A DNA stretch of 64,000 bases, taken from NCBI GenBank assembly GCA_041650835.1, contig JBAZKL010000004.1, positions 166,900 through 230,899 of the forward strand, in the 5' to 3' direction. The position numbers and the translations under genes are program-made. This DNA is from Candidatus Omnitrophota bacterium (GTDB lineage Bacteria; Omnitrophota; Gorgyraeia; Gygaellales; Profunditerraquicolaceae). Shown here piece after piece: positions 17,003 through 35,130 of the stretch (the stretch's first letter is position 1; each line of letters opens with the position of its first letter). The notes under the pieces were generated by a model. It saw only the letters and a list, made by a program, of their open reading frames with translations. It was not told the origin of the DNA and ran no database searches.

Positions 17003-17045
17003 ATACCGCCTCCTTATAATAGGATTACCACCAACAACTGCGACG

Positions 17046-18220: not shown

Positions 18221-18251
18221 AATAAAGATCCCCCTAAAGTTACAGTGGTAA

Positions 18252-18819: not shown

Positions 18820-18840
18820 TATTTTTCTACTCAGAAATTC

Positions 18841-18910
18841 AGCGACTTGCCGATTTTATTCCTAATTTCTTTGTTTAGAGTGAGTTATTGAGTTATGACA
18901 CCAATTATTT
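18841..18910 (+). repeat. family A element, right half only (copy 5)
   Basis: cgacttgccgattttattcctaatttctttgtttagagtgagttattgagttatgacaccaatt. Confidence 0.7.
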
Positions 18911-19140: not shown

Positions 19141-19342
19141 CAACTTGAATCTATCTAACACTAATTATTCCCCGCAACAGTTTTCCACCTATTTCAGGCG
19201 TGACAGTTGGCGGGATGTTTGGTTTATCGCTAAAATTGTTTTTCCATGCCATTCCTTACCTTTTCTTTCTATCTCATCGCTTTTTGCAATTCATAATTCT
19301 TTTTTGTTGTTCTCAAAAGAACATCACCCCTTTTACTAATCA

Positions 19343-22015
19343 TTACGGTTCCAGCTGCTTTTTGCGTTGCTTTCTTGTTTGATCACGACGACCAATAAGC
19401 TGCCTTGAAAAGTCCCTCAAGGAGCTTATATCAGCGAGCACTTCATCAGGTGCAGGACGATCACAATGCAAAGCCTTGGATTTGTCATGACCTGTCATCC
19501 AAGTACTAGCCTTAGATATATGAAGATCAACGCAATGAATATCAGAATCTTCAATAGCCACTCCATTGAGTCTGAGGGTCTGCACGCTGTTTCTGTATCG
19601 ACAAACTACCTTATCGAACAAATCATCCTCAATACAAGATTCCCAAGCTTCACGCAATAATCCGTAAACATAAGCCGCTTCTTTGTTGTACTCTACCATA
19701 TCTTGCTGATAAAAAGATTTAATCTTATTAACCAAATCTTCCAGGTATTGCGCCCGCTGTCCAACCTTCATGGCATGCCAAGGTACACTATTAATTGTAA
19801 TGCCCGCTGACTTTCCGTCACGGCGCAAAGTATGTACGGTGATACTAACTGGCGTACCGGCCTTGGCAAGCGCCATTCCGGCATCCTCCAATTCCATCAG
19901 GAAAGCTATGTTATGAGTAAATATAATGACCTGTCGTTTAAGCCCCTCTTTCGCGAGCCGTTCAGCAATCTTTCCAGTGAATATATGATCGAGCGATGAA
20001 ACTGGATCATCCAACACGATCGCGTTAACATGTGGGACAAGTTGAAGCTCAGCCAGAAAACCAGCAATTGCGATAACTCGTGCCTCACCTTCACTGAGAA
20101 TCTGAGAGATGCGTACCCGGCCTGATATATTAACGCCTTCCAACAAAATCTCGTGTGTAGTCTCCCCTACATCTCCACAAGGCTTAACCGATATAGACAA
20201 ACGATTCGCACCTAACGCAATAAGTTCCTTCTTAAAAGCACTTATCAACTCCGGAGTTAAGTTCTTCTTAATCACCACTGTGCCTTGCCGTGTAATTTCA
20301 TAAGTACTAAGGGTATCAGCCGCTCGCCGCAAATCGGCATTACGCCGAATCTTAGCAACAAGCGCGTAAATATCGACTTTCCTAGCGTTGAGCGCCTTCC
20401 GCGATTTAAGTTCTGTTATGCTGGCGATAAGCTTCTTATATTCCTCAGGCTTAGCCGCATTCGTAATTTCAGTAGCCTTTTGGGTTAATGTTTTGGCAAC
20501 CGATCGTAATGCTGCTTCTACAGATGCTGGCCATGGTGGCAATAATTTCGACCTTTGCGGATCTTCACCTTCTTTGAGTAAAACGAGTGCTGCAGATTTT
20601 CGCACGGCAATCGCTGTGTGATAGGTTCGCAAATCACTTGCCATCGGGACACCCAAACTACTAAGCTCATCACAAATCGAGTCAAGTGTTGCGGCAGTCA
20701 AAGGAGTCACAGCCTCTATCTTTTCCCTCAGCAACTTCAGCGCATTGCGCTTTGTAACTAACACAGTGTTTGTAGCATCTTCCATAAACTTCTTAAAACG
20801 GGCAAAACGGGCAACAGCCTCTTCACCTAGTGGTTGCTGGCAAAAAACACAGACCGCATCATCTGTTTTCGGAAAGGCCTGACCGGGGTAAGCTATCTCC
20901 TCAGAGTATTTCTTTGCTGCCTTATAGAGGATCTCCCATTGATCGGTGGAAGCAACACCTGGTAGCGTTTCGAACGTCTGCCGTTCAGCCACGGCAGCCG
21001 CACGTGCAAGCTGCGCAGCATTCACCTCTAATATAGCGTTCTGGATACCGTCATTCGTCAAATCAACGCACGCAGCTATGAGCTTTGTCACCGCACTTGC
21101 AGCATCGTTAATTCGCCCTTTAATTTTTTCGAGTCGGGCTACCTCTTGAGTTGCTTTCGTGGAATCTGATGTCCTCGCGAGCTCTTCTTGAGCAATCAAT
21201 TGTAACTCATCTTGCGGAGTCCAATTCGTCGCAGCTTGAATAACCTCTTCTTTGGTAGTCTCTAACAAAGACTCGAGAAATTTAGCTGCTGCGGTACCCG
21301 CCGCAATAGCTGAATCCTGAATCGGCATGATAGCCATTATCTCCGTTTCCACGTCTCCCCTAACTCTTTGGACGATCTCCGCCAGCTTCTGAAACACATC
21401 GCAACCATAGGGCAGATAGTTAATCTGATTTCGATCATCAGTAATGATTCGAGCGCAGCGTCCGTCAAATACTGTGATATTGGTCAAAACAGGGTCGACA
21501 GAAACACCTTGAGTCCAAGCAACATCCCTTGACTTATTATCCTGTTTAATCTTTATTATGGCGGTTGGCGCACCAGATGGTGCCTTAACGAAGACATTAG
21601 AAAGGATACGCTCATCCTTATCGCGGGCTTGGCACGCCAGTTTCAAGATTCGGGAATAACCAGACTTACCAGCGCCATTGTCACCATACACCACTGTAAC
21701 ACCACTCTCAGCGAAAGGCTGTGACGCGCCAGCCTTGATGATGTTGACATTTCTAACGTCATCAATTGATAGTAGTTTAACAGCAACTGTTGTTGTGGGA
21801 ACACCCGAGAAGTTACCCGCAACCGGGAGAATAGGCTTGAGTTTTTCGGGAAACGCTGCAATTTTTAAATCTGCTTTGGCCAAAGCCAATATCTCAGAAT
21901 AATCTTGAGCATTGAGCGGCTGGTCACCCTTAGTCAACAGACGACGAACAACGTCTCCTTGCCACGCAGGTAAAGAACTGGCCCATACAATAATATCGTC
22001 AATAGTAGCCATCAA
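19343..22015 (-). CDS. Rad50/SbcC/RecN-like ABC ATPase with long coiled-coil insert and ~75-aa N-terminal extension
   Basis: Walker A VVYGDNGAGKSGYSRIL, about 500 aa coiled coil, C-terminal signature/Walker B/H-loop (SEGEARVIAIA...IVLDDPVSSLD...IIFTHN); 890 aa. Confidence 0.8.
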   Translation of the reverse strand: MMATIDDIIVWASSLPAWQGDVVRRLLTKGDQPLNAQDYSEILALAKADLKIAAFPEKLKPILPVAGNFSGVPTTTVAVKLLSIDDVRNVNIIKAGASQPFAESGVTVVYGDNGAGKSGYSRILKLACQARDKDERILSNVFVKAPSGAPTAIIKIKQDNKSRDVAWTQGVSVDPVLTNITVFDGRCARIITDDRNQINYLPYGCDVFQKLAEIVQRVRGDVETEIMAIMPIQDSAIAAGTAAAKFLESLLETTKEEVIQAATNWTPQDELQLIAQEELARTSDSTKATQEVARLEKIKGRINDAASAVTKLIAACVDLTNDGIQNAILEVNAAQLARAAAVAERQTFETLPGVASTDQWEILYKAAKKYSEEIAYPGQAFPKTDDAVCVFCQQPLGEEAVARFARFKKFMEDATNTVLVTKRNALKLLREKIEAVTPLTAATLDSICDELSSLGVPMASDLRTYHTAIAVRKSAALVLLKEGEDPQRSKLLPPWPASVEAALRSVAKTLTQKATEITNAAKPEEYKKLIASITELKSRKALNARKVDIYALVAKIRRNADLRRAADTLSTYEITRQGTVVIKKNLTPELISAFKKELIALGANRLSISVKPCGDVGETTHEILLEGVNISGRVRISQILSEGEARVIAIAGFLAELQLVPHVNAIVLDDPVSSLDHIFTGKIAERLAKEGLKRQVIIFTHNIAFLMELEDAGMALAKAGTPVSITVHTLRRDGKSAGITINSVPWHAMKVGQRAQYLEDLVNKIKSFYQQDMVEYNKEAAYVYGLLREAWESCIEDDLFDKVVCRYRNSVQTLRLNGVAIEDSDIHCVDLHISKASTWMTGHDKSKALHCDRPAPDEVLADISSLRDFSRQLIGRRDQTRKQRKKQLEP

Positions 22016-22047
22016 TTACTCTCCAGGGTACCTGTCTACTGTAAAAT

Positions 22048-23580
22048 TCAGACTATTGGTCTATCCACTCCATCATCTTCCGATACATCAATAGGCAGTA
22101 AGGCGGTAGCCTCACCTACGGGAAGCTCCTGCACATCCTTGAGTTTTCTCCCGATGCCCCTTGACCTAACTTTAGCTTGTTCAATTGTGTCTGATGCTTG
22201 ATGTAACTTATTTTGCACTGCATCCAAAACATCGCCATACTTCGTCCACTCGGTTTTGACTGCAGCAAGAAGATTCCAGACCTCACTAGAACGCTTCTGG
22301 ATAGCAAGCGTTCGAAAACCCATCTGAAGACTGTTTAAAATAGACCATAGGGTAGTCGGACCAGCGATAACCACACGGCATTCCCGTTGGATAACCTCGA
22401 TCAAGCCCGTCCTACGAATGACTTCAGCAAAGAGACCCTCTATAGGTAAAAACAGAATACCGAAGTCCGTGGTTTTTGGCGGATTTAAATATTTTTTAGA
22501 GATGTCAGATGCACAAATCTTGACACGATTCTCCAACTGTTTACTCGCCGCTTCAACTCCTTCAATATCTGCTCTTTCTTGAGCCTCAATCAAACGCTGA
22601 TAGTCTTCAACAGGAAACTTAGCGTCAACCGGGAGCCAGACAACATCATCCTTATCAGTGCCTTTTCCCGGCAGTTTGATCGCAAACTCAACACGCTCGC
22701 CTCCCTCTTTCGTAGCCACGTTGATGCCAAACTGATCAGGATTGAGCACCTGCTCTAACAACGCCCCAAGTTGCACTTCACCCCACGTCCCACGTGTTTT
22801 GACATTTGTAAGTACCTTTTTAAGATCACCAACACCCGTAGCAAGCGTTTGCATCTCCCCAAGTCCTTTATGCACCATCTCCAGACGTTCACTGACTTGC
22901 TTAAAGGATTCACCCAAGCGCCTTTCCAATGTCCCCTGGAGTTTCTCGTCCACGGTCTGGCGCATTTGTTCAAGCTGCTTGGCGTTATCAATCTGCATGC
23001 TTTGAAGTTTACTTTCCACCGCGACCCTGACTGACTCCAGTTTTTTCTCATTTGAATCCGAAAGTCTACCAATCGCGGTTGACATAATTTCAAGTTGGGT
23101 TTTCTGAAGATTGGCCAATTCGCCCATTGTTTTAGTGGTGGCTTCCGTAATCCCCTTAAGAGTTGCAATAACCTCTTCCCTTAACTGTTTAGCTCCAGTG
23201 GCAGACTCGGCACGAACACCATCCAAGCGTTCACCGCTAGCCTTGGCGAAAGAAGCAAGTTGATTAGAAAAAACATCGAGTTGCCCCTTCTGCATATTGG
23301 CTATATCCATCATTCGTTGTACCACCGAATCGCCAAAGACTTTAAATGCTTCGGCGAGCTCCTGTCTTTGTTCTCTTGTCGTCTTACCCATTTCGTCTCT
23401 GCTCTGAGCCACTTCTTCTCTAACCGCATGCTCAGTACGTTCTTGTGCCTTTTCCAAAACATCAAGACGAGAGGCAATCAAAGAAGGATCAGTTTGGTAT
23501 AGTTTCTTTGAGATAACAAGCAAAACAGCTACCACGCCAACCAGCAAAACAAGAATCACAAATAACAGTATATTAATCAC
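22048..23580 (-). CDS. rmuC: DNA recombination protein RmuC family (TM anchor, coiled coil, RmuC nuclease-like domain)
   Basis: N-terminal TM, extensive coiled coil, C-terminal TTDFGILFLPIEGLFAEV...VIAGPTTLWSIL characteristic of RmuC. Confidence 0.8.
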   Translation of the reverse strand: MINILLFVILVLLVGVVAVLLVISKKLYQTDPSLIASRLDVLEKAQERTEHAVREEVAQSRDEMGKTTREQRQELAEAFKVFGDSVVQRMMDIANMQKGQLDVFSNQLASFAKASGERLDGVRAESATGAKQLREEVIATLKGITEATTKTMGELANLQKTQLEIMSTAIGRLSDSNEKKLESVRVAVESKLQSMQIDNAKQLEQMRQTVDEKLQGTLERRLGESFKQVSERLEMVHKGLGEMQTLATGVGDLKKVLTNVKTRGTWGEVQLGALLEQVLNPDQFGINVATKEGGERVEFAIKLPGKGTDKDDVVWLPVDAKFPVEDYQRLIEAQERADIEGVEAASKQLENRVKICASDISKKYLNPPKTTDFGILFLPIEGLFAEVIRRTGLIEVIQRECRVVIAGPTTLWSILNSLQMGFRTLAIQKRSSEVWNLLAAVKTEWTKYGDVLDAVQNKLHQASDTIEQAKVRSRGIGRKLKDVQELPVGEATALLPIDVSEDDGVDRPIV

Positions 23581-23618
23581 AAAAACCTCCTTAAAAATCC
23601 CTTAAACTCATAAAATTT

Positions 23619-23837
23619 TTATACTTTTAATAATAATCTAATCGTTTGCAATAAATTTCTGTTCAATTCCTGCTGATTTATTCCTACCATTACCTTGATT
23701 GCTCTTCGCAGATTGATTGTCATTGCTCTAATCGACCTACCTTGCTCTACCTTGGTCAACTCGCGAAAAGTTTTACGGTTTCCTTGATGTGCTTTAATTG
23801 TCTTTCCACACTTTGGGCATTTATTATATTGTATCAT
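23619..23837 (-). CDS. transposase-like zinc-ribbon/HTH fragment (possible IS remnant)
   Basis: CPKCGKTIKAHQGNRKTF zinc ribbon; preceded by the same ~115-bp family B element that precedes the IS30 transposase gene. Confidence 0.35.
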   Translation of the reverse strand: MIQYNKCPKCGKTIKAHQGNRKTFRELTKVEQGRSIRAMTINLRRAIKVMVGINQQELNRNLLQTIRLLLKV

Positions 23838-23937
23838 CGTATTTCCTTTCTTTAGTACTCACCTTCAGTCATCTGCCAGCCATAGCGCTTAAACAATTGC
23901 TCTGTTTTTGCCTAGTCATTCTCATTCAAATTTCATA

Positions 23938-24049
23938 GACGCTGTATCCAACCTACTATAATCCTTACACTTACAAAACAATTACTTCCGCCCAGCACAA
24001 AAGGATTGTTTTGCAACTCAAAGAAGCATTATCGGTTACGTATAGCGTC
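23938..24049 (+). repeat. family B ~115-bp inverted-repeat element copy 1 (terminal IR gacgctgtat / tatagcgtc; internal ATCCAAC and ttacaaaacaatt/aattgttttgcaa)
   Basis: near-identical copy at 30727..30837. Confidence 0.8.
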
Positions 24050-24162
24050 TAGGATTCCCCTTGCCATTTGCCTACCTCCCTCATCTGAATAGAATAGTAA
24101 ATCCCAACCGCCATCCATAATAAAATCCCGAAAGCTTTAAGATTCCATATATGTTTAACAAA

Positions 24163-25710
24163 TTAATAGTTTTTATTTTCGTCTTTATCTTTTAAATCTA
24201 AAGTTTTTCTGGCTTCTTTTACATCAATTTTAGCCTTGTGACCATGCTTCTCCAATAGATGTAACAGATTATTACCATTTAGTAATGTTAAAGGCTTATC
24301 TTGTGCAAACTTATATGCATCTGGACCATAATCGGTAGTTGTAACCAAAATTCCTTTCATAGCGCCTTCGTTCATTACAGTACCATATAAGTCTCGTACA
24401 GCAGATACCCCTACAATGTTTGTATATCTTTTAGCTTGTATAACAATTTTGCCTCCACGAACTGGATCTGGGTCAAAAGCTACTGCATCAACCCCTTCAT
24501 CTCTACTCGCCCTTGTAATTTTGACTTCGCCACCACTGGCTGCAAATTCCTTTTCAAATATTTCTCTAATGAGATTTTCAAAATCTTGCCAATCCATTGC
24601 TGCGATATTTGATTTTTCATCTACATTATCTACCACAGCATAGGGAGAGACAAACCTTTTATCCTCTCGGTTAATTTGCATAATAGGAGCTATAGCGGCA
24701 AGCCCGTGAAGTTTACTACTACCTATTCCTTTTAACTTTTTAAAACAAGTTTTTGGATCTACATTTTCTAAGTTAATTGCGAGAAAATCATCCCGAACAG
24801 CTTGAACCGACAAAATACATGCTACTGCTTCCTTGCCAGTTCCCTTGTCGATAAATCTTACATAACCATTAAATATTACGGAGGTGATCGTCCCCATGCT
24901 ATCATTTTTATATAGCTGGTAAATTGTTAATAAAGTAAGTTGGTATAATAAATCATCGTACAATTCATTAAAAGAACTGCCGGAAATATGCGATTCTTTA
25001 AACTCTGCTCTCGTGTCGTTATATTTAACTTCCTTTAGTGTGGGGATGTTTTCTTTTGATGGCAAAAAATAGTCTATAAGTAATATTCCCGACTCTGGAT
25101 TAAAATCAATTTGAAATTCTTGAGGAAATGTTTCCGGATAAAAAGATTGGCATTTTGATAGAAACATTTCGCAGTAATCTACAATTGCGTCTTTTTGTTT
25201 ATTGAAATAGTCTCCTTTTCGCTTTATGATTTCTTGGTTTTTTTCTTCTCTATTTTTAAAAAAATCTTCCCCTTCTTTTTCCCATTTCAAAACATCATCA
25301 TCATACTGTGTTAACATCTTTGAATTCTTCTCGGTTATCGATGAGCATGCTCTTTCCCATTCTAAATGTGCTTTTTGGAAATTATTCTTCATTTCTTCAA
25401 TTTCTTTCTGCTTTTCTTCAGGAAAAAGTATACCAAATAATGTACCTACCTTTGGCTTAAAAGATGGGTCTATCTCATGCGGCTCTTTCGGCAATTTTAA
25501 TGGTTTGGGCGAGAGAGGTTTTCTTTTTGAGTATTCTGATTTATCTAATAAATCCTCCCAAATAATGGTTGGAACTGTTTTTATAGATTCTTTTAAAATA
25601 TTTTTAATCCTACTTAGCTTTTCTTCTGCCTCTTTTGTCTTTACAGCTGCTAAGTCTTTTTTGTTCGACGGCAATAGTTTATAGATAGATTCTTTATCAA
25701 TAATAATCAT
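24163..25710 (-). CDS. Mrr-like restriction endonuclease catalytic domain protein with uncharacterised ~370-aa N-terminal region
   Basis: C-terminal DEGVDAVAF...KIVIQAKRY...GILVTTTDYGPDA matches the Mrr_cat (PD-(D/E)xK) pattern; N-terminal part lysine/glutamate-rich without a recognisable motif. Confidence 0.7.
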   Translation of the reverse strand: MIIIDKESIYKLLPSNKKDLAAVKTKEAEEKLSRIKNILKESIKTVPTIIWEDLLDKSEYSKRKPLSPKPLKLPKEPHEIDPSFKPKVGTLFGILFPEEKQKEIEEMKNNFQKAHLEWERACSSITEKNSKMLTQYDDDVLKWEKEGEDFFKNREEKNQEIIKRKGDYFNKQKDAIVDYCEMFLSKCQSFYPETFPQEFQIDFNPESGILLIDYFLPSKENIPTLKEVKYNDTRAEFKESHISGSSFNELYDDLLYQLTLLTIYQLYKNDSMGTITSVIFNGYVRFIDKGTGKEAVACILSVQAVRDDFLAINLENVDPKTCFKKLKGIGSSKLHGLAAIAPIMQINREDKRFVSPYAVVDNVDEKSNIAAMDWQDFENLIREIFEKEFAASGGEVKITRASRDEGVDAVAFDPDPVRGGKIVIQAKRYTNIVGVSAVRDLYGTVMNEGAMKGILVTTTDYGPDAYKFAQDKPLTLLNGNNLLHLLEKHGHKAKIDVKEARKTLDLKDKDENKNY

Positions 25711-25735
25711 TATTTTTCTCCATACTTAACAAATA

Positions 25736-25859
25736 GCAAGACGTTTTATCCAACATCATAATTATCAACGCGTTACAAAACAATTTCTTAATCTTATCTG
25801 TCTTCAGCATTTGTTATGCAACTTAATAACGAAGAAATAGTTAGACAAAACGTCTTATT
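25736..25859 (+). repeat. family C ~120-bp inverted-repeat element copy 1 with integron-core-like ends (ATCCAAC ... GTTAGAC)
   Basis: caagacgttttATCCAACat...ttacaaaacaatt...aataGTTAGACaaaacgtcttatt; terminal IR aagacgtttt/aaaacgtctt. Confidence 0.8.
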
Positions 25860-25885
25860 AATATCGTTTTTGTCATAATTTCCAT

Positions 25886-26356
25886 TTATCCGTTCAAGTC
25901 GGGAACAGTATACTCGATAAGTCTATCCTCAAGATTTCTTCTCTCCACATCCGAGAGATTACTGGTCTGGCAAAACCATAATTTTATTCTTTTGCGTTTG
26001 TAATGATTAAGAACAAATTTGTTTATTTTGCAGTTAGTAGATTGACCCCTTACAAAACAATTACGAGGACTTATTAGCCCGTAACCACTATTTATACGAT
26101 TATACAAATCCTGGCATTCTCCAACATAGCGGATTTTGTTATTTAGTGTAAAAAAATAGAGTCCACTTCTCCCACTCCACTTCGGGAGAATCTTGAATCC
26201 ACAAAATCCACCTTTCCCATATCTGTGTAAAGCATACCCTTTCTTGTTATCATATCGGCTTTGCGGATAACTAATGATTACGGTACCATTCTTACTGCGC
26301 ATTAACTCTATCTTACAAACCTCGAGAAAAACAAAACCTAAAATCTTCTTAATCAT
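25886..26356 (-). CDS. GIY-YIG nuclease-domain protein
   Basis: GLYFFTLNNKIRYVGECQDLYNRIN (GIY...YVG...R...N) and downstream conserved Glu (RRNLEDRLIE). Confidence 0.65.
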   Translation of the reverse strand: MIKKILGFVFLEVCKIELMRSKNGTVIISYPQSRYDNKKGYALHRYGKGGFCGFKILPKWSGRSGLYFFTLNNKIRYVGECQDLYNRINSGYGLISPRNCFVRGQSTNCKINKFVLNHYKRKRIKLWFCQTSNLSDVERRNLEDRLIEYTVPDLNG

Positions 26357-26419
26357 TTCTTAAGTAATATTCCAAAGTTCTTTTATTCTATTTACTATAT
26401 GCTGCCATTTTTTTGAATA

Positions 26420-26515
26420 GCAAGACGTTTTATTCAACATTATGATTCTCAACGCGTTACAAAACAATTCATTAATCTTATCTGTCTTCAGTATTTGTTA
26501 TGTAACTAAAAAACG
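26420..26515 (+). repeat. family C element copy 2 (right end diverged)
   Basis: caagacgttttATTCAACat...ttacaaaacaatt... Confidence 0.75.
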
Positions 26516-26524
26516 AATATAGGA

Positions 26525-26650
26525 AAAAACAGTATCTGAACTCGATGACTATCTAAAATTATTGGACTTATGAATTAATTCCGCACCTTGCCGATTTTAT
26601 TCCTAATTTATTTGATTCCAGTGAGTTATTGAGTTCTGACACCAATTATC
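26525..26650 (+). repeat. family A element copy 6
   Basis: aaaaaacagtatctgaactcgatgac ... GAGTTCTGACACcaatt. Confidence 0.85.
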
Positions 26651-26707
26651 TAATTCTAAAGAGATAAACCATCTTACATCGGCACGTATTGGCCAATACT
26701 TAAAACC

Positions 26708-29389
26708 TCAACTTCCGATCAAACGCTTTAGTCTCTTAGCCGCATCTCTTGTTTCTTGCGCAAATTGATGTTTTGCTAAAAAAGCATCATCAACAAACCC
26801 AAGTGACTTCGTTATAAAGTCAGTACCGTACTTAAACCAATTGGGCTTCTCTTTAAAATAAGCCTCTACCGCCGGCTTGGCTTTTTCGATAACCCCATCT
26901 ATATCTTTTAGTTTCGAATATTTAGCAGTATCTATATCATTCAAAATCTTTATATTTAGTTCTTCAGAAACAGGTTTCTCTGAAAATTTCCACTCGGTAT
27001 ATGCTTTTAATGTTTCCCGATTTATAGCTTGATTAAGAAAAATATCCTTTTCTGAATCGCTAATTATTTCTTTATCTCGTCTTTTAATCTCCTCAATAAC
27101 CTTCTGCAAGTTTCTAAATGATTCGTAAATTGGAATATCAATGAAACCTTTAATTTTTCTATCACGTTTATTTTTCTGAACAAATTCTAAGTTATATTTT
27201 GTACCATTAGTATTCAAATTTATTATTAAATAATTTGCGGAATTTTCATTTACCAGGTTTTTATGATTTTCGTAATACTTTTCAGACATATCTTTTATTA
27301 CTAGGATTTGTCGGCTATATTTGGGAATTTTACGGTAGAAACAAAGATGGGGTATTTTACTATTTATAACATCTTCTCTTATCGATACCATAGTTGAGCC
27401 AAAGAGATTTGGATCAGGAGGAAAGCTTGCAAGCAAAAGATTAGTTAGCTGAACATAATTCTTAAAAAATCGCTCCATTATAATAATAATTTGGTTTTTG
27501 AATTGTTCTATATAAGCAATGATCTTCTTTGTTTGATTCTCTAATACTTCCCTGGGAATATGTTGGGGTATATTTTTTTGTAATTTCTCTAGATATTTTT
27601 GATTGCTTTGATAAATAGTTAGCACATCCATATCGCAATATTGTTGTATGTCATTATTATGTACTTTCGTTTCATCATATCCCTCTTCTGGTTTTTCGTC
27701 TTTTACAAGAATTCTTATATCGTCAACCTCATTTACATATAAAGAAAACTTCTCTAGGCTCTCTAAGAAATTATTTTCATAATCTAGCAGTACTTGCGGA
27801 GTAGCTGGAACGACCATTTTTGATTGTGTCCAGGCATATGCGTAAAACGCAATATTCTTGCCCTCAATTGTTTTTACAATCTCGCCTTTTAATAAAATTA
27901 CGCCTAATCTTAATAAATATTCTATTAAATTTTTCTGAGCTAAATATATTCTTAATTGTAGATTATCTTCACGAGTAGGCGGATCTTTACTTAAATGTAA
28001 TTCTTGAAAAAAGGGAATATCAATAAATTTATAGAGCCCGGTTAATAATAGATTATTTTGGTACCAGCAAGAAGGAGCCCAATATTTATTTAAATCAAAT
28101 ATTTGCCCAAGTGCTTTCTGAATATTTGCATGAAAAAGCTCTGTTTCTTCAAAGGACTCAATCTGTAAAACCGGCCTATCTTCCTTATCATAATCACTTA
28201 TGTAATCTCTAATCCTAAAATGCAGTTCAAAGAAATCTGATTTCGCTTGGTAACAAAGAAGATTCCTGAAATCTTGATATATTTGCTTATCGATAAATTT
28301 ATCCTTCGATTCGTCAATTATTTCATCAACATATGCTTCTAAATCGTCAAAATTAGGACGACTAATAAATATTTTGTCATTAAAGAATGTGTAAGCTATT
28401 TCTCTCTCTTCTTTTGATTTTTCAACAACATCATAAATATCCTTCCCAGCTATAAAAACAAAGAGCCCAGAAGATAGCGTAAATAAATTCTTGAAGGTTT
28501 TTATAATATCTGTTATCTTGACTCTCTCGGTTTCTTTAATCTTATCCATTTCATCTATAACAAAAATTATTTTGGAAGATTCTTTCGATAATGAAATCTC
28601 ATCCAAGAGGGCATAAAGATCATATTCTAGGTTACTAATACTTTTGTCAGTTATATATAATTCTTCAACAGAACTGCTCTCGCTTGCTTTTTTACTTTTT
28701 GTTATACTCTTTAATATTTTGTATGATAGCGTCTTTGGTAAAAGAAAGGACAAAGAACCTAATAAAATATTTAAAACTAGATTCTCTTTAGTCGACAAAT
28801 AGAAAAAGCTCATACCAACAATTATCCCTAAAGAGCTAAGGAAATTTCTTATTTGTTCAGAATCAACGCTATATTTTCCTTCTATTTCTTGCTGATCATT
28901 TTCTTCCTGTTCTGTTTCCTTTTTCAATTTAATTTCTTCTTTAATTTCCGATTTTTCAGAAATTGCTTTTTGATACAGCTTACCTAATTTTCTCTGTGAA
29001 TCATCATCTAGCTTGCTTCTCGCGGCAGTATATAATCTTCTTATTAAATTAATAATTATCTTTTCTTCTAGTCTCTCTGGACTTATTTCTAGAACGTCTT
29101 TACCTTCTGCTAAACTTTCTTCAATAAGCAGCTGAGATGCATTAATCAAAACAGGAATAATCTTTTTATTCTTTGCCGTAGCTTTATATAAAGCTTCATA
29201 AACCAGAGCTGTCTTACCAACACCTCGCTCACCACTGACCAAAAGACAACCCTTTTCTCTTCTTAAGAACCAATTTTCAATTTTATTTCTTTCCTCTTTT
29301 CTTCCAACAAAATGTCCCTGTGGTTTTTCATAATGAGGAAAGTAATCCCAGTCTTTTTTAAGTGCCAATTTTAATTCTTCATTTACCAT
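26708..29389 (-). CDS. KAP-family P-loop NTPase (Walker A, TM-helix insertion, Walker B) with large C-terminal region
   Basis: FVGRKEE...GERGVGKT Walker A; two hydrophobic helices (IIVGMSFFYLS...LLGSLSFLL) inserted before Walker B KIIFVIDEMD; 893 aa, extremely A+T-rich gene. Confidence 0.7.
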   Translation of the reverse strand: MVNEELKLALKKDWDYFPHYEKPQGHFVGRKEERNKIENWFLRREKGCLLVSGERGVGKTALVYEALYKATAKNKKIIPVLINASQLLIEESLAEGKDVLEISPERLEEKIIINLIRRLYTAARSKLDDDSQRKLGKLYQKAISEKSEIKEEIKLKKETEQEENDQQEIEGKYSVDSEQIRNFLSSLGIIVGMSFFYLSTKENLVLNILLGSLSFLLPKTLSYKILKSITKSKKASESSSVEELYITDKSISNLEYDLYALLDEISLSKESSKIIFVIDEMDKIKETERVKITDIIKTFKNLFTLSSGLFVFIAGKDIYDVVEKSKEEREIAYTFFNDKIFISRPNFDDLEAYVDEIIDESKDKFIDKQIYQDFRNLLCYQAKSDFFELHFRIRDYISDYDKEDRPVLQIESFEETELFHANIQKALGQIFDLNKYWAPSCWYQNNLLLTGLYKFIDIPFFQELHLSKDPPTREDNLQLRIYLAQKNLIEYLLRLGVILLKGEIVKTIEGKNIAFYAYAWTQSKMVVPATPQVLLDYENNFLESLEKFSLYVNEVDDIRILVKDEKPEEGYDETKVHNNDIQQYCDMDVLTIYQSNQKYLEKLQKNIPQHIPREVLENQTKKIIAYIEQFKNQIIIIMERFFKNYVQLTNLLLASFPPDPNLFGSTMVSIREDVINSKIPHLCFYRKIPKYSRQILVIKDMSEKYYENHKNLVNENSANYLIINLNTNGTKYNLEFVQKNKRDRKIKGFIDIPIYESFRNLQKVIEEIKRRDKEIISDSEKDIFLNQAINRETLKAYTEWKFSEKPVSEELNIKILNDIDTAKYSKLKDIDGVIEKAKPAVEAYFKEKPNWFKYGTDFITKSLGFVDDAFLAKHQFAQETRDAAKRLKRLIGS

Positions 29390-29431
29390 GTTTTCACCTC
29401 TTTATTGATTACAATGATTCTGATCTGAATA

Positions 29432-29558
29432 AAAAAACAGTGTCAGAACTCGACAACTATCTAAAACTATTGGACTTGTGAATTAATTCCGTGACTTGCT
29501 GATTTTATTCGTAACTTATTTATTTACTGTAAGTTATTGAGTTCTGACATTAATTATT
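29432..29558 (+). repeat. family A element copy 7
   Basis: aaaaaaacAGTGTCAGAACTCgac ... GAGTTCTGACAtTaatt. Confidence 0.85.
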
Positions 29559-29644
29559 CAATTGCAATCTTATCAATTCAGACAGTTTACTCAATTCACG
29601 CATATCCGCTAAATGAAGCGACTGATAGTAATTCTCCTTATAGA

Positions 29645-30716
29645 ATTTCATAGACTGTAGATTCAAATTACTAACGCAACAACTCGCTGAATCTTTCGTG
29701 AGGCGTATGCCAGCCAAGAGTTTTTCTTGGCCGGTCGTTTAATTCATCTTGAACTTCTTTTAATCTGGTCCTTGAGATCTTTGAAAAATCTGTTCCTTTA
29801 GGGAAATACTGCCTTAATAAGGAATTTGTGTTTTCATTAGTTCCCCGCTCCCAGGGGGAATGCGGGTGAGCAAAATAAACGGTTATTTTTGTTTCTTTTG
29901 TAAATAGCTTATGCTGACACATCTCACCACCCTGGTCGTAGGTAAGCGTTCTTTTCAATCCTGGGGGTAAACTGCGGAATTCTTCGCCAAAAGATCTTCT
30001 GATAGTTGAGGCGTCCTGGTTCCGTAGTTTTACTAAGAAGGCCATGCGTGTCGTACGCTCAACGAGGGTTCCAATGGCTGAGGCATTACGTCGCCCGATT
30101 ATTAAATCGCCTTCCCAGTGTCCAGGGATAGTGCGGTCGGCTACTTCTTGCGGGCGTTCTTCGATGCTAAAGTAATCCTGTATGCTGCCTGGTTTCCCTC
30201 GTCTGCCATCTTTTTTGCGGCGGTATTTATGGTTTCTTCTAAGATAAGATATAAGCCTGCGCTTGAAGGTGCCGCGAGGTAAAACATAGATATGGGAGTA
30301 AATTGTTTCGTGAGAGACGCGCATAGACATATCATTAGGATACAATACAATGAGTCTCTTGGCAATCTGTTCAGGTGACCAGTTTTTTGTTAAATAAGAA
30401 AGAACGAGTTTTCTTAACAGCGCGTTAGTGGCAAGTTTACGATTCTTGCGTATCTTGTGACGCGTTTTGATCGACTGCTGCTGAACGAAAATAGCACGGT
30501 AATATTTTAATTCTACTACCCCTGACTGACGTATTTCTCTGGATATACTACTGGGCGACCTGTTGAGAATACCGGCTATTGTTCGCAAACTGGATCCTAA
30601 TGCAATTTGACGGCTGATCTCTTCGCGCTCAAAGAGCGAGATTCGGTGATATTTTATCATTCGCAACTCCTTTCATCCGCTATTATAGCAGATTAAAGTG
30701 TTGCGTTAGTTGCTTG
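29645..30716 (-). mobile_element. intact IS30-family insertion sequence (about 1.07 kb)
   Basis: terminal inverted repeats ...ttactaacgcaacaac (left) and gttgcgttagttgc (right) flank a full-length transposase gene. Confidence 0.8.
29671..30666 (-). CDS. IS30-family transposase (DDE)
   Basis: N-terminal HTH, HWEGDLIIG, ...YFAHPHSPWERGTNENTNSLLRQ... IS30 signature; 331 aa. Confidence 0.9.
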   Translation of the reverse strand: MRMIKYHRISLFEREEISRQIALGSSLRTIAGILNRSPSSISREIRQSGVVELKYYRAIFVQQQSIKTRHKIRKNRKLATNALLRKLVLSYLTKNWSPEQIAKRLIVLYPNDMSMRVSHETIYSHIYVLPRGTFKRRLISYLRRNHKYRRKKDGRRGKPGSIQDYFSIEERPQEVADRTIPGHWEGDLIIGRRNASAIGTLVERTTRMAFLVKLRNQDASTIRRSFGEEFRSLPPGLKRTLTYDQGGEMCQHKLFTKETKITVYFAHPHSPWERGTNENTNSLLRQYFPKGTDFSKISRTRLKEVQDELNDRPRKTLGWHTPHERFSELLR

Positions 30717-30726
30717 AGTCTAAGGA

Positions 30727-30837
30727 CCGCTGTATCCAACCTACTATAATCCTTACACTTACAAAACAATTAGATAGGTTCAAGCAAAAGAATTGTTTTG
30801 CAACTTAAAGAAGCATTATCGGTTACGTACAGCGTCC
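30727..30837 (+). repeat. family B element copy 2
   Basis: ccgctgtATCCAACctactataatccttacacttacaaaacaatt...aattgttttgcaactt...ggttacgtacagcgtcc. Confidence 0.8.
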
Positions 30838-30865
30838 TTAGGATTTCCATGACTCCTTAAACCTA

Positions 30866-31783
30866 TTAATGTATGCCAGGAAGCTGAATAACCTTTTGCG
30901 ATTGTATAAAGGCAGCTCCCATATGGTTTTCGATAATTTTACAAGCAGTGGTACTGGATAAAGTATGAATAAAAGTATGATGTACACTCAATGCAGCATT
31001 TTGAATGTCTTGGTTGTCTTCTAACATTGATATGATCAAACCGATCTCTTTACACCTCTCAGGGGGCAGATGTCTTGAATGAGATAATGTTTCATCATGG
31101 CTTCCTATTACACTGACAATTTTGTTAATAGAATCAGTTTTTTGAGGTTCGGGTAAATTCGCAAACATTCCTGTGCCCAACCATTTCTTAACAAGATACT
31201 CTGACCAAGTAATTGCCTTTTGACATTCGCCAATAAATGCTGGAGGATATTTAGCAATTATTGGTTGCCAAACTGGTATTTTTGCAGAATCCAGTTTAAT
31301 CTCCTCATAAGCTTTCGAGAATTCTTCAATCACACCGTGACATGGTATTCCATTAAATTGAGGATCTATTGGACCCAAGCTGGAATGTTTCCCCATTAGT
31401 ACTTCTTTACAAGCACATGCTATCATTGTACCACCAGACATTGAAAGCTGCGGAACGATCGCTCTTATATTAGTCCCAAATAAACTCCTCAAGTAATCAA
31501 CAAGAGATTCTGTAGCAGCAGTTTCACCTCCCGGAGTATGCAAAATCAAATCTAATCCTTTCGACCAATCCATACCTTTTAAGGCTGACATAAATCCATT
31601 TTTATCATTGTCATTTATAGAAACCAGTTGGGGATCAGCCTTTTTTTGCAGCCATCCTGAATAATAAGCAATTACATTACGTCCTGTTAAATCATATAAT
31701 TTTTTTAAATAGCTGCGCCGAACAATATCTTGCGTACTACCAAGTTGGTGTATTTCTTCTCCTAATTCTTTCCAATTACCCAT
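30866..31783 (-). CDS. SDH-family (S49/ClpP-fold) serine protease
   Basis: LILHTPGGE and SMSGGTMIACAC motifs typical of the ClpP/SppA fold (serine dehydrogenase proteinase family); 8-bp overlap with upstream small ORF. Confidence 0.65.
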   Translation of the reverse strand: MGNWKELGEEIHQLGSTQDIVRRSYLKKLYDLTGRNVIAYYSGWLQKKADPQLVSINDNDKNGFMSALKGMDWSKGLDLILHTPGGETAATESLVDYLRSLFGTNIRAIVPQLSMSGGTMIACACKEVLMGKHSSLGPIDPQFNGIPCHGVIEEFSKAYEEIKLDSAKIPVWQPIIAKYPPAFIGECQKAITWSEYLVKKWLGTGMFANLPEPQKTDSINKIVSVIGSHDETLSHSRHLPPERCKEIGLIISMLEDNQDIQNAALSVHHTFIHTLSSTTACKIIENHMGAAFIQSQKVIQLPGIH

Positions 31784-32009
31784 TGTTTATCTCCAGCCCT
31801 ACAGTATCTGTAGTTATCATAATATTCCAAGTACTCCCTGATCTTTCCATGGTTAAATCATTCCTCAATCCTTCAAAAGGATTTGGAATCTTCAAAAGTT
31901 CGTATAATTCAATAATCTCTTTATCAGTGAATTTTTTCATAATAAGACAACCTAAAGAAAATATTTGCAGCGGGGCTATAGCCTTCCCAAACCAGCCAAA
32001 TAATTCCAT
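31776..32009 (-). CDS. small protein translationally coupled to the SDH protease
   Basis: 77-aa ORF overlapping the protease start by 8 bp. Confidence 0.45.
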   Translation of the reverse strand: MELFGWFGKAIAPLQIFSLGCLIMKKFTDKEIIELYELLKIPNPFEGLRNDLTMERSGSTWNIMITTDTVGLEINNG

Positions 32010-32038
32010 TCGTCATTTTTGAACCTTTTCTACCCCCG

Positions 32039-32170
32039 CAAAAAAAACAGTGTCAGAACTCGATGACTATCTAGAATTATTGGACTTGTGAATTAATTCC
32101 GCGTCTTGCCGATTTTATTCGTAATTTATTTATTTACAGTGAGTTATTGAATTCTAACGCTAATTATTTA
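32039..32170 (+). repeat. family A element copy 8 (abuts cyclase stop codon)
   Basis: aaaaaaaacAGTGTCAGAACTCgatgac ... GAaTTCTaACgCTaatt. Confidence 0.85.
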
Positions 32171-33124
32171 TCGAAACCTCACCTTATGAACTTTATAAGG
32201 TTTATCGTCTTCACCTTTATACTGCCAATCATCTCTTAGTTTTATCTCGTTGCAGCCTTCGCGCCACGTTGTATGTAAATTCCTCTCGGTTATATCTCCC
32301 AGAAGGATATCTCCTGGATTACCTAAGCTCTGAATTTTCGCGGCTAAACTAACAACTGAACCAATTATGTCCTTGTGCCTTTTTGTGTTAGGGCTACCGA
32401 TAGCTATTATACAGGCATCTCCAGAATCTAAGCCTATTCTAATATTGATGGTAGGGTAACCATTTTCCTCAAGCATTTGATTTACTCCACTATATATCAG
32501 CCTTCTTACTGTTAAAGAGCAGTCTAGAGCCAAATCATTTTTTATTATAAAGCTTGGCTCAGGGAAATATGCTATCAGCCCATCTCCGGTATATTTTAAA
32601 ACATGCCCATGGAACTTAGGAACAATTTCGCTCATTTCATATAAAATGACAGATATTAATTTCGCATATTTCTGGAGATCCAGGCTTTTTGATAGCTTTG
32701 TTGAACCAGCTAAATCTACACACATAATAACGAATCCCAAGCTATCAGTGGCTAATGACTCCAAGAACTCTTCTGACTTATCCTTAAAAACATAAGGTTC
32801 TTCTTCCGATTTTAATCTTTCACGAATCAACGGTATTCTCTCTTGAATATATTTCTCTGCATCACCGATTTCTTGCCGTTGCAGATACATTGGCTTTCCA
32901 GCTAATTGCTTTGCAAAATCAGCAAATACGTTTTCAGGAAAAATAATTTTATCAAATTTATCATATAAATACCGCTTCCCATTTATGTCTTTCCATTCAT
33001 ACCTTCTGGGGTCTGGGAGTAATCTCACTGTAAATATCTTTTTATCATCATCCACAGAAATAACTTCTTGAACAAAGTCCATCCTAAAAGCTTTGGTCTT
33101 ATCAGACACGCTTGAATTCTCCAT
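32168..33124 (-). CDS. class III nucleotidyl (adenylate/guanylate-type) cyclase with ~130-aa N-terminal extension
   Basis: cyclase-homology-domain motifs VIMCVDLAGSTKL, KYTGDGLIAYF, IRIGLDSGDACI, GSVVSLAAKIQS. Confidence 0.75.
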   Translation of the reverse strand: MENSSVSDKTKAFRMDFVQEVISVDDDKKIFTVRLLPDPRRYEWKDINGKRYLYDKFDKIIFPENVFADFAKQLAGKPMYLQRQEIGDAEKYIQERIPLIRERLKSEEEPYVFKDKSEEFLESLATDSLGFVIMCVDLAGSTKLSKSLDLQKYAKLISVILYEMSEIVPKFHGHVLKYTGDGLIAYFPEPSFIIKNDLALDCSLTVRRLIYSGVNQMLEENGYPTINIRIGLDSGDACIIAIGSPNTKRHKDIIGSVVSLAAKIQSLGNPGDILLGDITERNLHTTWREGCNEIKLRDDWQYKGEDDKPYKVHKVRFR

Positions 33125-33144
33125 ATCTTTTATTTAACTATCTT

Positions 33145-33609
33145 TTATTCGCCATAGTAACTTATTAGCCATATAGCTAAGCCAGCCAAAACTAATTTTC
33201 CTATAAATTTTTTATTTTCGACCTGCACCTTCAGTATATCTAAATAGTTATCCGCATTTATATATGCCTGCTTGGGGTTATTCTTATCAAACTCTATATA
33301 TTCTTTTCCTACCAATACTCCTTTTAAGGTAACCCCTTTCTCAACAATCGGTACAACAGGAATTTTGAAAGCATTCGCAGTAGCAATCTCTTGATTAACT
33401 ATGTCGGAGCGCGATCCGTCAATTGTCATTATAGCTAACACACAACTACTATTTCTTATATTTGCCTGTATCTTACCCCACAAATCAGTACCGGGTTGCG
33501 CATCAAGAACAGCCAAGTATACCTCTATTCCTTTCAGCCTTAATATATTGGCAAATTCATCAACAATCTGCATATCTTTTGTGCTGTGGCTAATAAAAAC
33601 ATTCATCAT
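33145..33609 (-). CDS. TIR-domain protein with C-terminal transmembrane helix
   Basis: MMNVFISHSTKD (FISHS TIR hallmark), conserved Glu in VNQEIATA, C-terminal LVLAGLAIWLISYY hydrophobic helix; 154 aa. Confidence 0.75.
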   Translation of the reverse strand: MMNVFISHSTKDMQIVDEFANILRLKGIEVYLAVLDAQPGTDLWGKIQANIRNSSCVLAIMTIDGSRSDIVNQEIATANAFKIPVVPIVEKGVTLKGVLVGKEYIEFDKNNPKQAYINADNYLDILKVQVENKKFIGKLVLAGLAIWLISYYGE

Positions 33610-33654
33610 TCTTTATTGCCCCCGATCTAAATAAAACCCCTAAGCTAGAAAGAA

Positions 33655-33852
33655 CTAAAAAGGATTCTTTCCTCCTATTTCGCAGAAGCTACACCTTGTC
33701 TGGATGCAATCGTTCTCTTTATTGAGACATTTTTTAACTCTCCAACCAAGCGTCTTAGGGTTACCCATTTCCTTTATACTTTCCACTACCACATTAATAT
33801 CCCTCTGCCTAAGATTACAGTACTTAGATTCAATCCTTGTAGGATTGCTCAT
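33655..33852 (-). CDS. small cysteine-rich protein (first gene of the TIR-cyclase unit)
   Basis: 65 aa with CxxxxC...CxxC pattern; 45 bp upstream of the TIR gene on the same strand. Confidence 0.4.
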   Translation of the reverse strand: MSNPTRIESKYCNLRQRDINVVVESIKEMGNPKTLGWRVKKCLNKENDCIQTRCSFCEIGGKNPF

Positions 33853-33984
33853 TTACACCTCCTCGTTCTGGAAATCCATCATACTGAACATATCAAAGAA
33901 TTGGTATGCCGTCTGCAAACCTGTAATTTGGTAAATAGTAATAATAGGAAACGTTTCTATCTTTCTCATACAAAAGCCACCAGA

Positions 33985-34100
33985 AAATACAAAAACCCGA
34001 GCTCTTGGCCCGGGTAAGTGATAGAATTTCCTATAAAGAATGGAACAGCCTTTGCATGGTCCCCCCACTTAATTGACACTAATATTATATCCTTACGTTG
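33985..34100 (+). promoter_or_regulatory. composite element D copy 3: terminator hairpin plus sigma-54-like promoter (34041..34056, TGGAAC-N5-TTGCA)
   Basis: aacccgagctcttggcccgggt hairpin then TGGaACagcctTTGCA and a conserved cccacttaattgaca...atattatatcctta tail. Confidence 0.55.
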
Positions 34101-35045: not shown

Positions 35046-35047
35046 AG

Positions 35048-35130
35048 CGGAGAGGCAGGGATTCGAACCCTGGGACCTTGCAGTCACGCGCTCTCCAAGC
35101 GCGCGCATTCGACCACTCTGCCACCTCTCC
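35048..35130 (-). tRNA. tRNA-Ser (anticodon GGA)
   Basis: minus-strand cloverleaf: acceptor GGAGAGG/CCTCTCC, anticodon stem CGCGC/GCGCG with loop TTGGAGA, long variable arm, T-arm CAGGG-TTCGAAT-CCCTG, discriminator G. Confidence 0.85.

Follow-up and report, generated by a model that had tools for sequence, protein, structure and literature searches.

A divergent KAP-like NTPase as a candidate single-gene anti-phage protein in a repeat-punctuated island of a Candidatus Omnitrophota genome

KAP NTPases of eukaryotes and of some bacteria carry two or four transmembrane (TM) helices inserted in their P-loop domain. An anti-phage role of membrane-anchored P-loop NTPases has been established only recently, for KAP fusions and Tmn (2025-2026). 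KAP NTPases fused to C-terminal regions without known domains were shown experimentally to be single-gene antiphage proteins that depend on Walker B as well as on their C-terminal region; EF_KAP reportedly does not work through abortive infection (PLoS Biol 2026, PMC13552941). Tmn, whose P-loop domain contains two TM helices, forms a membrane decamer whose C-terminal arms recognise phage RIIB, with ATP turnover coupled to Mg2+ export and plasmolysis (PMC13001434). The KAP protein PifA, as cited in PMC13001434, brings about membrane depolarisation and nucleotide leakage on T7 infection. The literature is inconsistent in that a two-helix P-loop insertion is taken as defining either KAP or the neighbouring YobI/Tmn family (PMC13001434 among the sources). 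Here we describe a gene for an 893-amino-acid (aa) P-loop NTPase, referred to as the target, in a 64,000-nucleotide (nt) stretch of a Candidatus Omnitrophota metagenome-assembled genome (GenBank assembly GCA_041650835.1, contig JBAZKL010000004.1, positions 166,900 to 230,899), which is called the window in the following. On balance the target is probably a stand-alone anti-phage protein of the KAP-like class, that is, a membrane-anchored NTPase.

Like EF_KAP and the metagenomic KAP fusions, the target is a single polypeptide with a predicted TM helix within the P-loop NTPase and several hundred residues devoid of known domains, found in variable contexts of defence genes and mobile genetic elements (MGEs). 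The comparison is one of descriptions, and EF_KAP-type proteins match the Pfam KAP model whereas the target does not; their C-terminal regions are described as diverse, whereas the family of the target keeps about 500 C-terminal residues throughout. PifA of the F plasmid resembles the target in its KAP-type Walker NTPase and is a stand-alone exclusion protein acting on phage T7 at the membrane, and the PifA-type protein P0193 carries the C-terminal tail of the target. However, P0193 is a bona fide KAP protein (Pfam KAP E 4e-43, PADLOC PifA E 5e-70), whereas the target has no PADLOC PifA match, and the likeness found by hhalign between P0193 and the target family is limited to the Walker B segment and the tail. 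Moreover, PifA is reported to be without TM helices (PMC13001434), whereas the target has a hydrophobic hairpin.

As in YobI and Tmn, two TM helices, in the target predicted ones, lie between Walker A and Walker B, the C-terminal region is mainly helical and includes an α/β domain, and the organisation is that of a single gene; the variable α/β domain of Tmn is its proposed sensor (PMC13001434). YobI and Tmn differ in that the target gave no YobI match in Pfam or PADLOC and has a core resembling ORC/Cdc6 and AAA_16, with a lid and a winged helix. QatA belongs to the four-gene operon QatABCD, whereas the target has neither a conserved partner nor a PADLOC QatA match. The best structural matches of the target's N-terminal half include BrxC of BREX and RdrA of RADAR, with an AAA+ core, a lid and a winged helix, but these two proteins act in multi-gene systems and, like the STAND NTPases, have no membrane hairpin in the NTPase domain. 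With STAND NTPases the target has in common the core, the lid and a winged-helix-like module but not a TPR, WD40 or LRR sensor, and its best folds are ORC/Cdc6. Since single-gene KAP defence was already shown experimentally in 2026, we regard the target as a variant within single-protein, KAP/Tmn-like membrane NTPase defence.

The gene, its family and its predicted fold

The open reading frame (ORF) of the target starts with ATG, 6 nt downstream of the Shine-Dalgarno-like sequence AGAGGTG, and its product is exactly the NCBI protein MFA5119010.1, encoded on a 365,851-bp contig. The gene has a GC content of 30.6%, compared with about 48% in housekeeping parts of the window. By our estimate, an open frame of 893 codons would arise by chance in DNA of 30% GC with a probability of ~1e-32. 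Comparison with a copy from another metagenome that is 92% identical gave an overall ratio of nonsynonymous to synonymous substitution rates (dN/dS) of 0.14. The values are smallest for the NTPase core and the hairpin (0.08-0.09) and largest for the α/β domain (0.27) and the tail (0.29), which are the fastest-evolving parts of the protein. Given this ratio and this length, the ORF is a real gene under purifying selection. An earlier note on this DNA had proposed an 893-aa ORF at 26708-29389 with Walker A GERGVGKT, Walker B IIFVIDEMD and two TM helices within the NTPase domain. The ORF was confirmed, on the minus strand, and the motifs were found at residues 53-60 and 274-282; the two helices agree with residues 183-199 and 204-218, which are the protein's most hydrophobic segments and are both located between the Walker motifs, and with helices predicted by AlphaFold2 at residues 177-197 and 204-238.

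The family is rare, with 96 relatives only among 5.8 billion protein clusters. A few relatives have 893 aa and are 70-92% identical, a few are 42-50% identical, and most are ~750 aa long and 25-35% identical, the latter including proteins from Thermoleophilia, Elusimicrobia, Thermotoga, Anaerolineales and a Diapherotrites archaeon; Omnitrophota are likewise among the named sources of the relatives. Two hydrophobic segments between Walker A and Walker B occur in all 64 aligned homologs. In Pfam, the target scored above the gathering threshold for AAA_16 and below it for AAA_22, ATPase_2, nSTAND3 and NPHP3_N, and within the family weak matches to nSTAND3, nSTAND1, NPHP3_N and NACHT occur; NCBIfam and PHROGs scans of the target gave nothing informative. 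When 56 relatives were scanned singly, 39 matched the Pfam family KAP_NTPase (PF07693; best E 5e-14), and no YobI-type family was among the Pfam matches of the target or of these relatives. PADLOC v2 presumably contains a Tmn model, and the target has no PADLOC match of any kind. An hhalign comparison of the family profile with P0193 yielded a probability of 75% (E 2.4e-5), only over 88 columns of the Walker B-to-sensor segment.

Because 39 of 56 relatives match PF07693 and the membrane hairpin is present in 64 of 64 homologs, the target is best described, to judge from these comparisons, as a divergent KAP-like NTPase and not as a demonstrated KAP member. The assignment to the KAP family made in the earlier note is therefore supported in part: the conserved hairpin and the relatives speak for it, but the target itself matches neither PF07693 nor PADLOC PifA or QatA and aligns with P0193 by hhalign only over the Walker B segment. 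Traits typical of KAP NTPases are nevertheless present, namely the Walker motifs, the two-segment insertion, a sporadic distribution, a foreign GC content and one split homolog. This homolog, 50% identical to the target (locus L011, 7357-10088), is split into a 209-aa AAA_16 ORF and a 695-aa ORF, an apparent pseudogenisation of a kind often described for KAP NTPases. In its distribution, the clade extends the class of membrane-anchored defence NTPases to a rare family that crosses phyla, with members in bacteria and one archaeon, and that is missing from current defence catalogues.

A structural model of the target was built with AlphaFold2 from the alignment of 64 sequences (mean predicted local distance difference test score, pLDDT, 83.7; predicted template modelling score, pTM, 0.72), with low confidence confined to loops near the hairpin. 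The best matches of the whole model in the PDB were ORC/Cdc6-type initiators, the archaeal ATPase PAB2304, the N-terminal part of BrxC and RdrA (E 8e-5 to 1e-3), while CED-4 and ZAR1 matched more weakly. On the strength of the ORC/Cdc6, BrxC and RdrA matches, residues 1 to about 520 are predicted to comprise an AAA+-like core, which the membrane hairpin interrupts, together with a lid of helices and an element resembling a winged helix.

A separate model of residues 521-893 reached a pLDDT of 93.1 and a pTM of 0.87; Foldseek returned no significant match of these 373 residues in the PDB (best E 0.24) or among the BFVD viral proteins, and a search of PDB sequences with the family profile gave P-loop matches only. 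No housekeeping domain was found for the C-terminal region by these searches, and no repeat-type sensor domain (TPR, WD40, LRR) was detected in the target by a Pfam scan or in the structural search with the C-terminal model. The earlier note had spoken of ~550 aa of unknown function; of these, the first ~170 aa correspond to the ORC/Cdc6-like lid and winged helix and the region is conserved in the family, while for the helical and α/β domains no significant relative was found, in structure or in sequence. The ~750-aa relatives stop near target residue 775, and the architecture of residues 1-775 is conserved family-wide; within the family, the tail is a feature of the 893-aa subfamily. The ~550-aa C-terminal region is thus an integral part of the family and not a separately acquired effector domain, and the fully conserved architecture of ~775 aa offers a clean subject for structure-function work.

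The C-terminal tail and its partners

An exhaustive HMMER search with residues 351-893 was performed, ten of the proteins found were scanned with Pfam and PADLOC, and a profile search followed. The HMMER search returned 256 proteins, most of which match only the last ~110 residues of the target (778-892), with 40-55% identity and at their own C-termini, and the tail profile added 71 further proteins. Two architectures dominate. The commonest is a RelA/SpoT domain followed by the tail, in proteins of about 320-344 aa that match PADLOC PDC-S33, and the other is a TIR domain followed by the tail, in proteins of about 250-330 aa that match ThsB-like and PDC-S66 models. Further partners are the PifA-type KAP protein P0193, a fusion of a metallo-β-lactamase domain with RelA/SpoT, and a receiver-domain protein. 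The tail has a strongly conserved motif, GTDYITKSLGFVD..FR..H.F...TR; it belongs to no Pfam family, its profile matches no PDB chain by sequence, and tblastn gave no match to it on annotated plasmids or phages.

CapRel is a fused toxic small alarmone synthetase (toxSAS) immunity protein with a C-terminal sensor/antitoxin. The tail-bearing RelA/SpoT proteins resemble it in architecture, with a RelA/SpoT synthetase followed by a C-terminal domain of ~110 aa in a solitary protein of ~325 aa; this likeness concerns the tail only. However, homology of the tail to the C-terminal domain of CapRel is unsupported, as the tail profile finds no PDB chain.

It is conceivable that such a tail serves as a homotypic adaptor, an "effector-associated domain", that recruits a neighbouring effector. 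We rejected this for the examined loci, as neither the window nor any of 30 related loci has another ORF with the tail and the tail-bearing TIR and RelA/SpoT proteins are solitary genes. For the same reasons the tail is more likely a built-in sensing or regulatory module than a partner-recruiting adaptor, sensing being the role that analogy would assign to it. The shared tail thereby provides a testable handle on how TIR, RelA/SpoT and KAP effectors might be wired to one input.

Genomic context, proposed function and alternatives

Homologs with 42-92% identity to the target adjoin varied restriction-modification (R-M), TIR, DndB and recombinase genes. One locus contains an MvaI/BcnI R-M system and a large serine recombinase, another an AlwI R-M system and a ThsB-like TIR protein, and a third is an integrase/Prim-Pol island; Vsr, Dcm and UvrD-PDDEXK genes accompany the homologs at other loci, and DndB does so at one. 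No neighbour is common to the homolog loci and no conserved partner was found; the three candidates beside the target, a 156-aa ORF (orf156), an SDH protease and an Mrr enzyme, were rejected, as none of them occurs in any homolog locus. The family is sporadic and not part of core genomes; as the C-terminal region has no housekeeping match either, the refuting case set out in the earlier note does not apply. The GC content of its genes (0.29-0.34) is lower than that of the surroundings in every locus, and nucleotide homology between the window and the 92%-identical copy is limited to 29400-26732, that is, to the ORF itself. By these sequence comparisons, the target is a self-contained, horizontally mobile unit, acquired as a piece barely larger than the ORF. 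In the earlier note it had been called a single-gene unit in a defence context, which agrees well with the Mrr, Pycsar, PDC-S06 and SDH genes nearby and with the lack of a conserved partner beside the homologs; from this context we infer the defence activity.

At the AlwI locus (L003), 51-nt inverted repeats (4143-4193 and 12691-12741; 88% complementary) bracket an 8.5-kb block containing a helix-turn-helix gene, the AlwI R-M system, the ThsB-like TIR gene and a 70%-identical homolog of the target, which suggests that this block is mobile as a whole.

By analogy with the described proteins, the target might function as follows. The two-helix hairpin between Walker A and Walker B would pin the ORC/Cdc6-type NTPase core to the inner face of the membrane. 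The C-terminal modules would detect a phage component, with the tail as the likeliest trigger-sensing or auto-inhibitory element, as PifA, Tmn and EF_KAP would suggest. Nucleotide binding and hydrolysis would next cause the membrane-anchored core to oligomerise, and the resulting complex might perturb the membrane or the ion balance so that phage replication stops. The effector step is drawn purely from analogy, since no catalytic or pore-forming feature was identified in the target. Nothing in our analysis supports abortive infection, which the earlier note had suggested, and EF_KAP is reported to work otherwise (PMC13552941).

Several results count against a stand-alone anti-phage protein of the KAP-like class, the lack of an identified catalytic or pore-forming feature among them. 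The target has no match to PF07693 at E<=0.01, and none of the PADLOC models, those for PifA and QatA included, recognises it. Its hydrophobic segments are short (15-17 aa, Kyte-Doolittle hydropathy about 1.5-1.7) and were modelled at only ~70 pLDDT. Relatives of the target were not found by tblastn on annotated plasmids or phages, and one distant member, from Anaerolineales, is a solitary gene between gatCAB and aspS, outside any defence island. The last of these findings, and the lack of any match to a defence-database model, would fit a membrane-associated NTPase with a role other than defence, such as MGE maintenance or addiction or the assembly of a membrane complex, and KAP NTPases do have non-immune roles in eukaryotes, as in Kidins220/ARMS. 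We nevertheless consider this unlikely. The family is repeatedly located beside R-M, TIR, DndB and Pycsar genes across unrelated hosts; its distribution is sporadic, its GC content is foreign and one homolog is split into two ORFs; and the same tail occurs in TIR and RelA/SpoT effectors with matches to candidate defence models.

An anti-phage protein could also act on nucleic acid and not on the membrane, if the α/β domain (residues ~651-777) were a divergent PD-(D/E)xK-like nuclease or a nucleic-acid-binding module switched by the NTPase. The recurring weak PDB matches of the C-terminal model are indeed restriction-endonuclease folds (EcoT38I, Kpn2I, Ecl18kI, Bax1, MUS81, XPF) and one HEPN protein, a winged-helix-like module precedes the α/β domain, and QatA, a KAP-family protein, binds DNA (bioRxiv 2025.09.03.674047). 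However, all these nuclease-fold and HEPN matches have E >= 0.24 and probabilities <= 0.30, and we did not accept them as evidence; there is no conserved D...(D/E)xK or Rx4-6H motif, and the family-consensus "PD" is "PK" in the target. Action on nucleic acid is thus improbable to a similar degree. Least credible is that the target works as one component of a multi-gene system together with a neighbour, be it orf156, Mrr or the SDH protease module. The target and its neighbours are co-directional and closely spaced, as such a system would have it, but repeats and an IS30 element separate the target from each of them, none of the neighbours is present in any homolog locus, the SDH module travels alone in other genomes, and no locus contains a second tail-bearing protein, which makes a multi-gene assembly very improbable. 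A stand-alone membrane NTPase of anti-phage function remains our preferred interpretation.

The repeat-punctuated island

The target lies in a tRNA-anchored hypervariable defence island in which, in this lineage, the modules are separated by oriented repeats (Table 1). Two comparisons support this reading. A close relative (L026 and L023), whose esterase gene and 443-aa gene (orf443) are 92-95% identical in nucleotide sequence to those of the window, has the same D1 and D2 repeats with 80-89% identity but different intervening genes, and the order of the esterase gene and orf443 differs from that in the window. In a more distant Omnitrophota genome (L027), the housekeeping side is syntenic, the orthologous tRNA-Ser is directly followed by the SDH module and then by other defence genes, and the repeats are absent. 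All neighbours of the target are encoded on the same strand. The order of transcription from tRNA-Ser is a TIR gene and a Pycsar-type cyclase, a small ORF with the SDH protease, IS30, the target, the 156-aa ORF, Mrr, RmuC, the PDC-S06 ATPase and small unrelated genes to about 11.6 kb. Such a repeat-punctuated, tRNA-anchored array represents a natural system for studying single-gene exchange among defence islands in an uncultured phylum.

Table 1. Positions of the target, its parts and the surrounding features in the window
Feature	Position	Strand	Remarks
Target ORF, 893 aa	26708..29389	minus	NCBI MFA5119010.1, "ATP-binding protein"; divergent KAP-like, putatively membrane-anchored NTPase of AAA_16/ORC fold
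Walker A codons, residues 53-60 (GERGVGKT)	29210..29233	minus	G53, G56, G58 and K59 invariant in 64 homologs
Hydrophobic hairpin, residues ~183-218	28736..28843	minus	between Walker A and Walker B; two hydrophobic segments in 64/64 family members
Walker B codons, residues 274-282 (IIFVIDEMD)	28544..28570	minus	D279, E280, D282 and K283 invariant in 64 homologs
Helical lid and winged-helix-like module, residues ~347-520	27830..28351	minus	predicted; completes ORC/Cdc6-type architecture; matches to ORC/Cdc6, BrxC, RdrA
Helical bundle and α/β domain, residues ~531-777	27059..27799	minus	family-conserved; no significant structural or sequence relative
All-helical tail, residues 778-893	26711..27058	minus	motif GTDFITKSLGFVD...H; common to RelA/SpoT, TIR and PifA-type proteins
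D1 copy upstream of target	29432..29560	minus	42 nt before ATG
D1 copy downstream of target	26524..26652	minus	55 nt after stop
D2 repeat directly following D1	26416..26517	minus	attC-like cores GTCTAAC ... GTTGAAT
B repeat	30728..30836	minus	attC-like cores ACGTAAC ... GTTGGAT; strong hairpin, z = -3.2 vs shuffled sequence
Repeat-punctuated hypervariable gene array (defence island)	11625..34000	minus	15 repeat copies, all co-oriented with genes
tRNA-Ser(GGA)	35047..35130	minus	upstream edge of island; in another Omnitrophota genome, orthologue immediately before a different defence island
Pycsar-like pair	32168-33609	minus	PycC-type nucleotide cyclase (PADLOC PycC E 4e-20) preceded by 154-aa TIR protein with hydrophobic C-terminal segment
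Two-gene module, small ORF and SDH Clp-like serine protease	30866-31946 (about)	minus	phrog_11747, E 5e-93
IS30-family insertion sequence	29658..30722	minus	24-nt terminal inverted repeats; at outer edge of B repeat
156-aa ORF with GIY-YIG-like motif	25886-26356	minus	phrog_1111 endonuclease, E 4e-5; unannotated by NCBI
Mrr-type type IV restriction enzyme	24163-25710	minus	long N-terminal extension; mREase_IV E 1e-55
PDC-S06 AAA_13 ATPase	19343-23580	minus	directly downstream of RmuC-family gene; PADLOC E 1.7e-187

Repeats occupy 13 of the 20 intergenic gaps between 11.6 and 34 kb but none of the 19 elsewhere in the window (Fisher p = 1.3e-5). Three kinds were distinguished in the window: D1, constant at 124 nt, with 10 copies or fragments; D2, about 102 nt, with 2 copies and a fragment; and B, about 110 nt, with 2 copies. 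The flanking repeats reported in the earlier note are present, with D1 copies on both sides of the target, but they do not set it apart as an isolated unit, being spread over an array of ~22 kb. D2 and B form imperfect palindromes that fold as hairpins and are similar to integron attC sites: their cores read RYYYAAC...GTTRRRY and their inner boxes GTTGCA.AAC / GTT.TGTAAC, but ~17 nt lie between R-like and L-like boxes, as against the canonical 5-7. D1 has only a terminal stem of 9-10 bp and a conserved interior of 95 nt that is not self-complementary; it shows no covariation, no match to an Rfam family even at E<=1 and no target-site duplications at its flanks. Given the terminal stem only, the lack of covariation and the missing Rfam match, D1 is unlikely to be a structured RNA or canonical attC site, and its interpretation as a miniature inverted-repeat transposable element (MITE) is weakened, but not settled, by the uniform orientation and the lack of target-site duplications. 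A search with D1 gave one chance-level match in public genomes and none in metagenomes, and a search with the D2/B cores gave 9 loci, L023 and L026 being the only informative ones. One D1 copy begins at the stop codon of the Pycsar-like cyclase, and a 12-nt flank of the B repeat (AATTTCATAGAC) was left on the far side of IS30.

The array resembles defence-carrying integron arrays, such as integron cassettes for resistance to bacteriophages (BRiCs) and sedentary chromosomal integrons, in its co-oriented unrelated genes, its repeats of 100-130 nt with AAC...GTT cores, its fast turnover and its richness in defence genes. The target could accordingly be an integron-type cassette and the flanking repeats attC sites of a sedentary array, either a cluster of attC sites lacking an integrase (CALIN) or one with its integrase outside the window, in which an IntI-type recombinase would take up and shuffle the target; this would concern how the gene arrived and not what it does. 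In keeping with it, D2 and B are imperfect palindromes of 100-110 nt with the expected cores and inner boxes, the repeats are concentrated in the island gaps and all co-oriented, unrelated genes are each followed by a repeat, L026 keeps the repeats with different genes in a different order, and defence genes are known from integron cassettes (bioRxiv 2024.07.02.601719). However, no integrase or other tyrosine recombinase (Phage_integrase-type match in ORFs of integrase size) was found in the 64-kb window or in L026, D1 as the commonest repeat and the flank of the target on both sides forms no hairpin, and the box spacing in D2 and B is not canonical. Moreover, the breakpoints relative to L026 lie off the GTT core, and the esterase gene there abuts the next gene without a repeat; single D2/B-like copies lie between housekeeping genes in other genomes, and the 92%-identical copy of the target occurs elsewhere without such repeats. 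We therefore consider an integron origin doubtful.

The repeats may instead be oriented intergenic elements that spread within a recombination-prone island, be it as terminator or insulator modules or as MITE-like elements of a non-autonomous kind; gene turnover there would proceed by homologous or illegitimate recombination with the repeats as substrates. Several features are consistent with this: D1 has a constant length and an imperfect terminal inverted repeat of ~18 nt, its 5' end contains stop codons in every frame and its 3' end a T-run; adjacent copies occur with no gene between them (D1-D2 with a 6-nt gap, and B-D1); truncated remnants lie at many junctions; solitary D2/B-like copies stand between housekeeping genes elsewhere; and a classical GC-hairpin terminator is likewise repeated in the island. 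On the other hand, D1 lacks target-site duplications, the 20 copies all point the same way, as MITEs do not usually do, no D1 occurs in the 43 kb of the window outside the island or in GTDB representative genomes, and a simple terminator scan did not call it. We give this explanation a chance that falls only a little short of even.

The tail and the array are the two leads that emerge beyond the target itself, one a portable tail domain and the other a repeat-punctuated, cassette-like array. Linking the two, it may be speculated that the tail is a portable immune module not described before, acting as trigger sensor or auto-inhibitor and borne on at least four unrelated chassis (KAP-like NTPases, PifA-type KAPs, toxSAS-like RelA/SpoT synthetases and TIR NADases), and that the island is a new Omnitrophota cassette array with lineage-specific, co-oriented recombination repeats of 100-130 nt and no adjacent integrase. 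This combination is tentative and rather unlikely to hold in full; if it were true, a single phage cue or regulatory logic would govern very different effectors through the tail.

Several further observations concern the island and its surroundings. The small ORF and SDH protease form a candidate defence module, so far uncharacterised, and the module recurs with 88-91% nucleotide identity in other Omnitrophota defence islands (L027, 7526-8607; L029, 9839-10918), where it is followed by an EcoRI-like methylase and a GmrSD-HNH gene. In L026 (210-4777), the cassettes between the same repeats include weak HEPN_RiboL-PSP and GIY-YIG matches, showing that defence-like content turns over between relatives. 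The PDC-S06 ATPase and RmuC genes have a host-like GC content (~46%), in contrast to the adjacent low-GC cassettes. The GC-hairpin terminator (CCCGGGCC..GAGCTCGGGTTTTT) occurs twice in the island, at ~15180 and ~34000 on the minus strand, and is its fourth repeated intergenic element. Just downstream of tRNA-Ser(GGA), between 34731 and 34959, three direct copies of a 24-nt motif (GAACGAGCAGGAATCTTYGTTAGC) with spacings of 129 and 81 nt might be attachment or regulatory sites. Just past the lower end of the array, a 260-aa protein (9147-9929, minus strand) contains a penicillin-binding protein transpeptidase domain (PF00905, E 1e-30) and has the size of a class D beta-lactamase or a BlaR-type sensor domain. 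In the housekeeping part of the window, two adjacent ankyrin-repeat proteins of 307 and 395 aa are encoded at 48283-50426 on the minus strand, which is unusual for bacteria.

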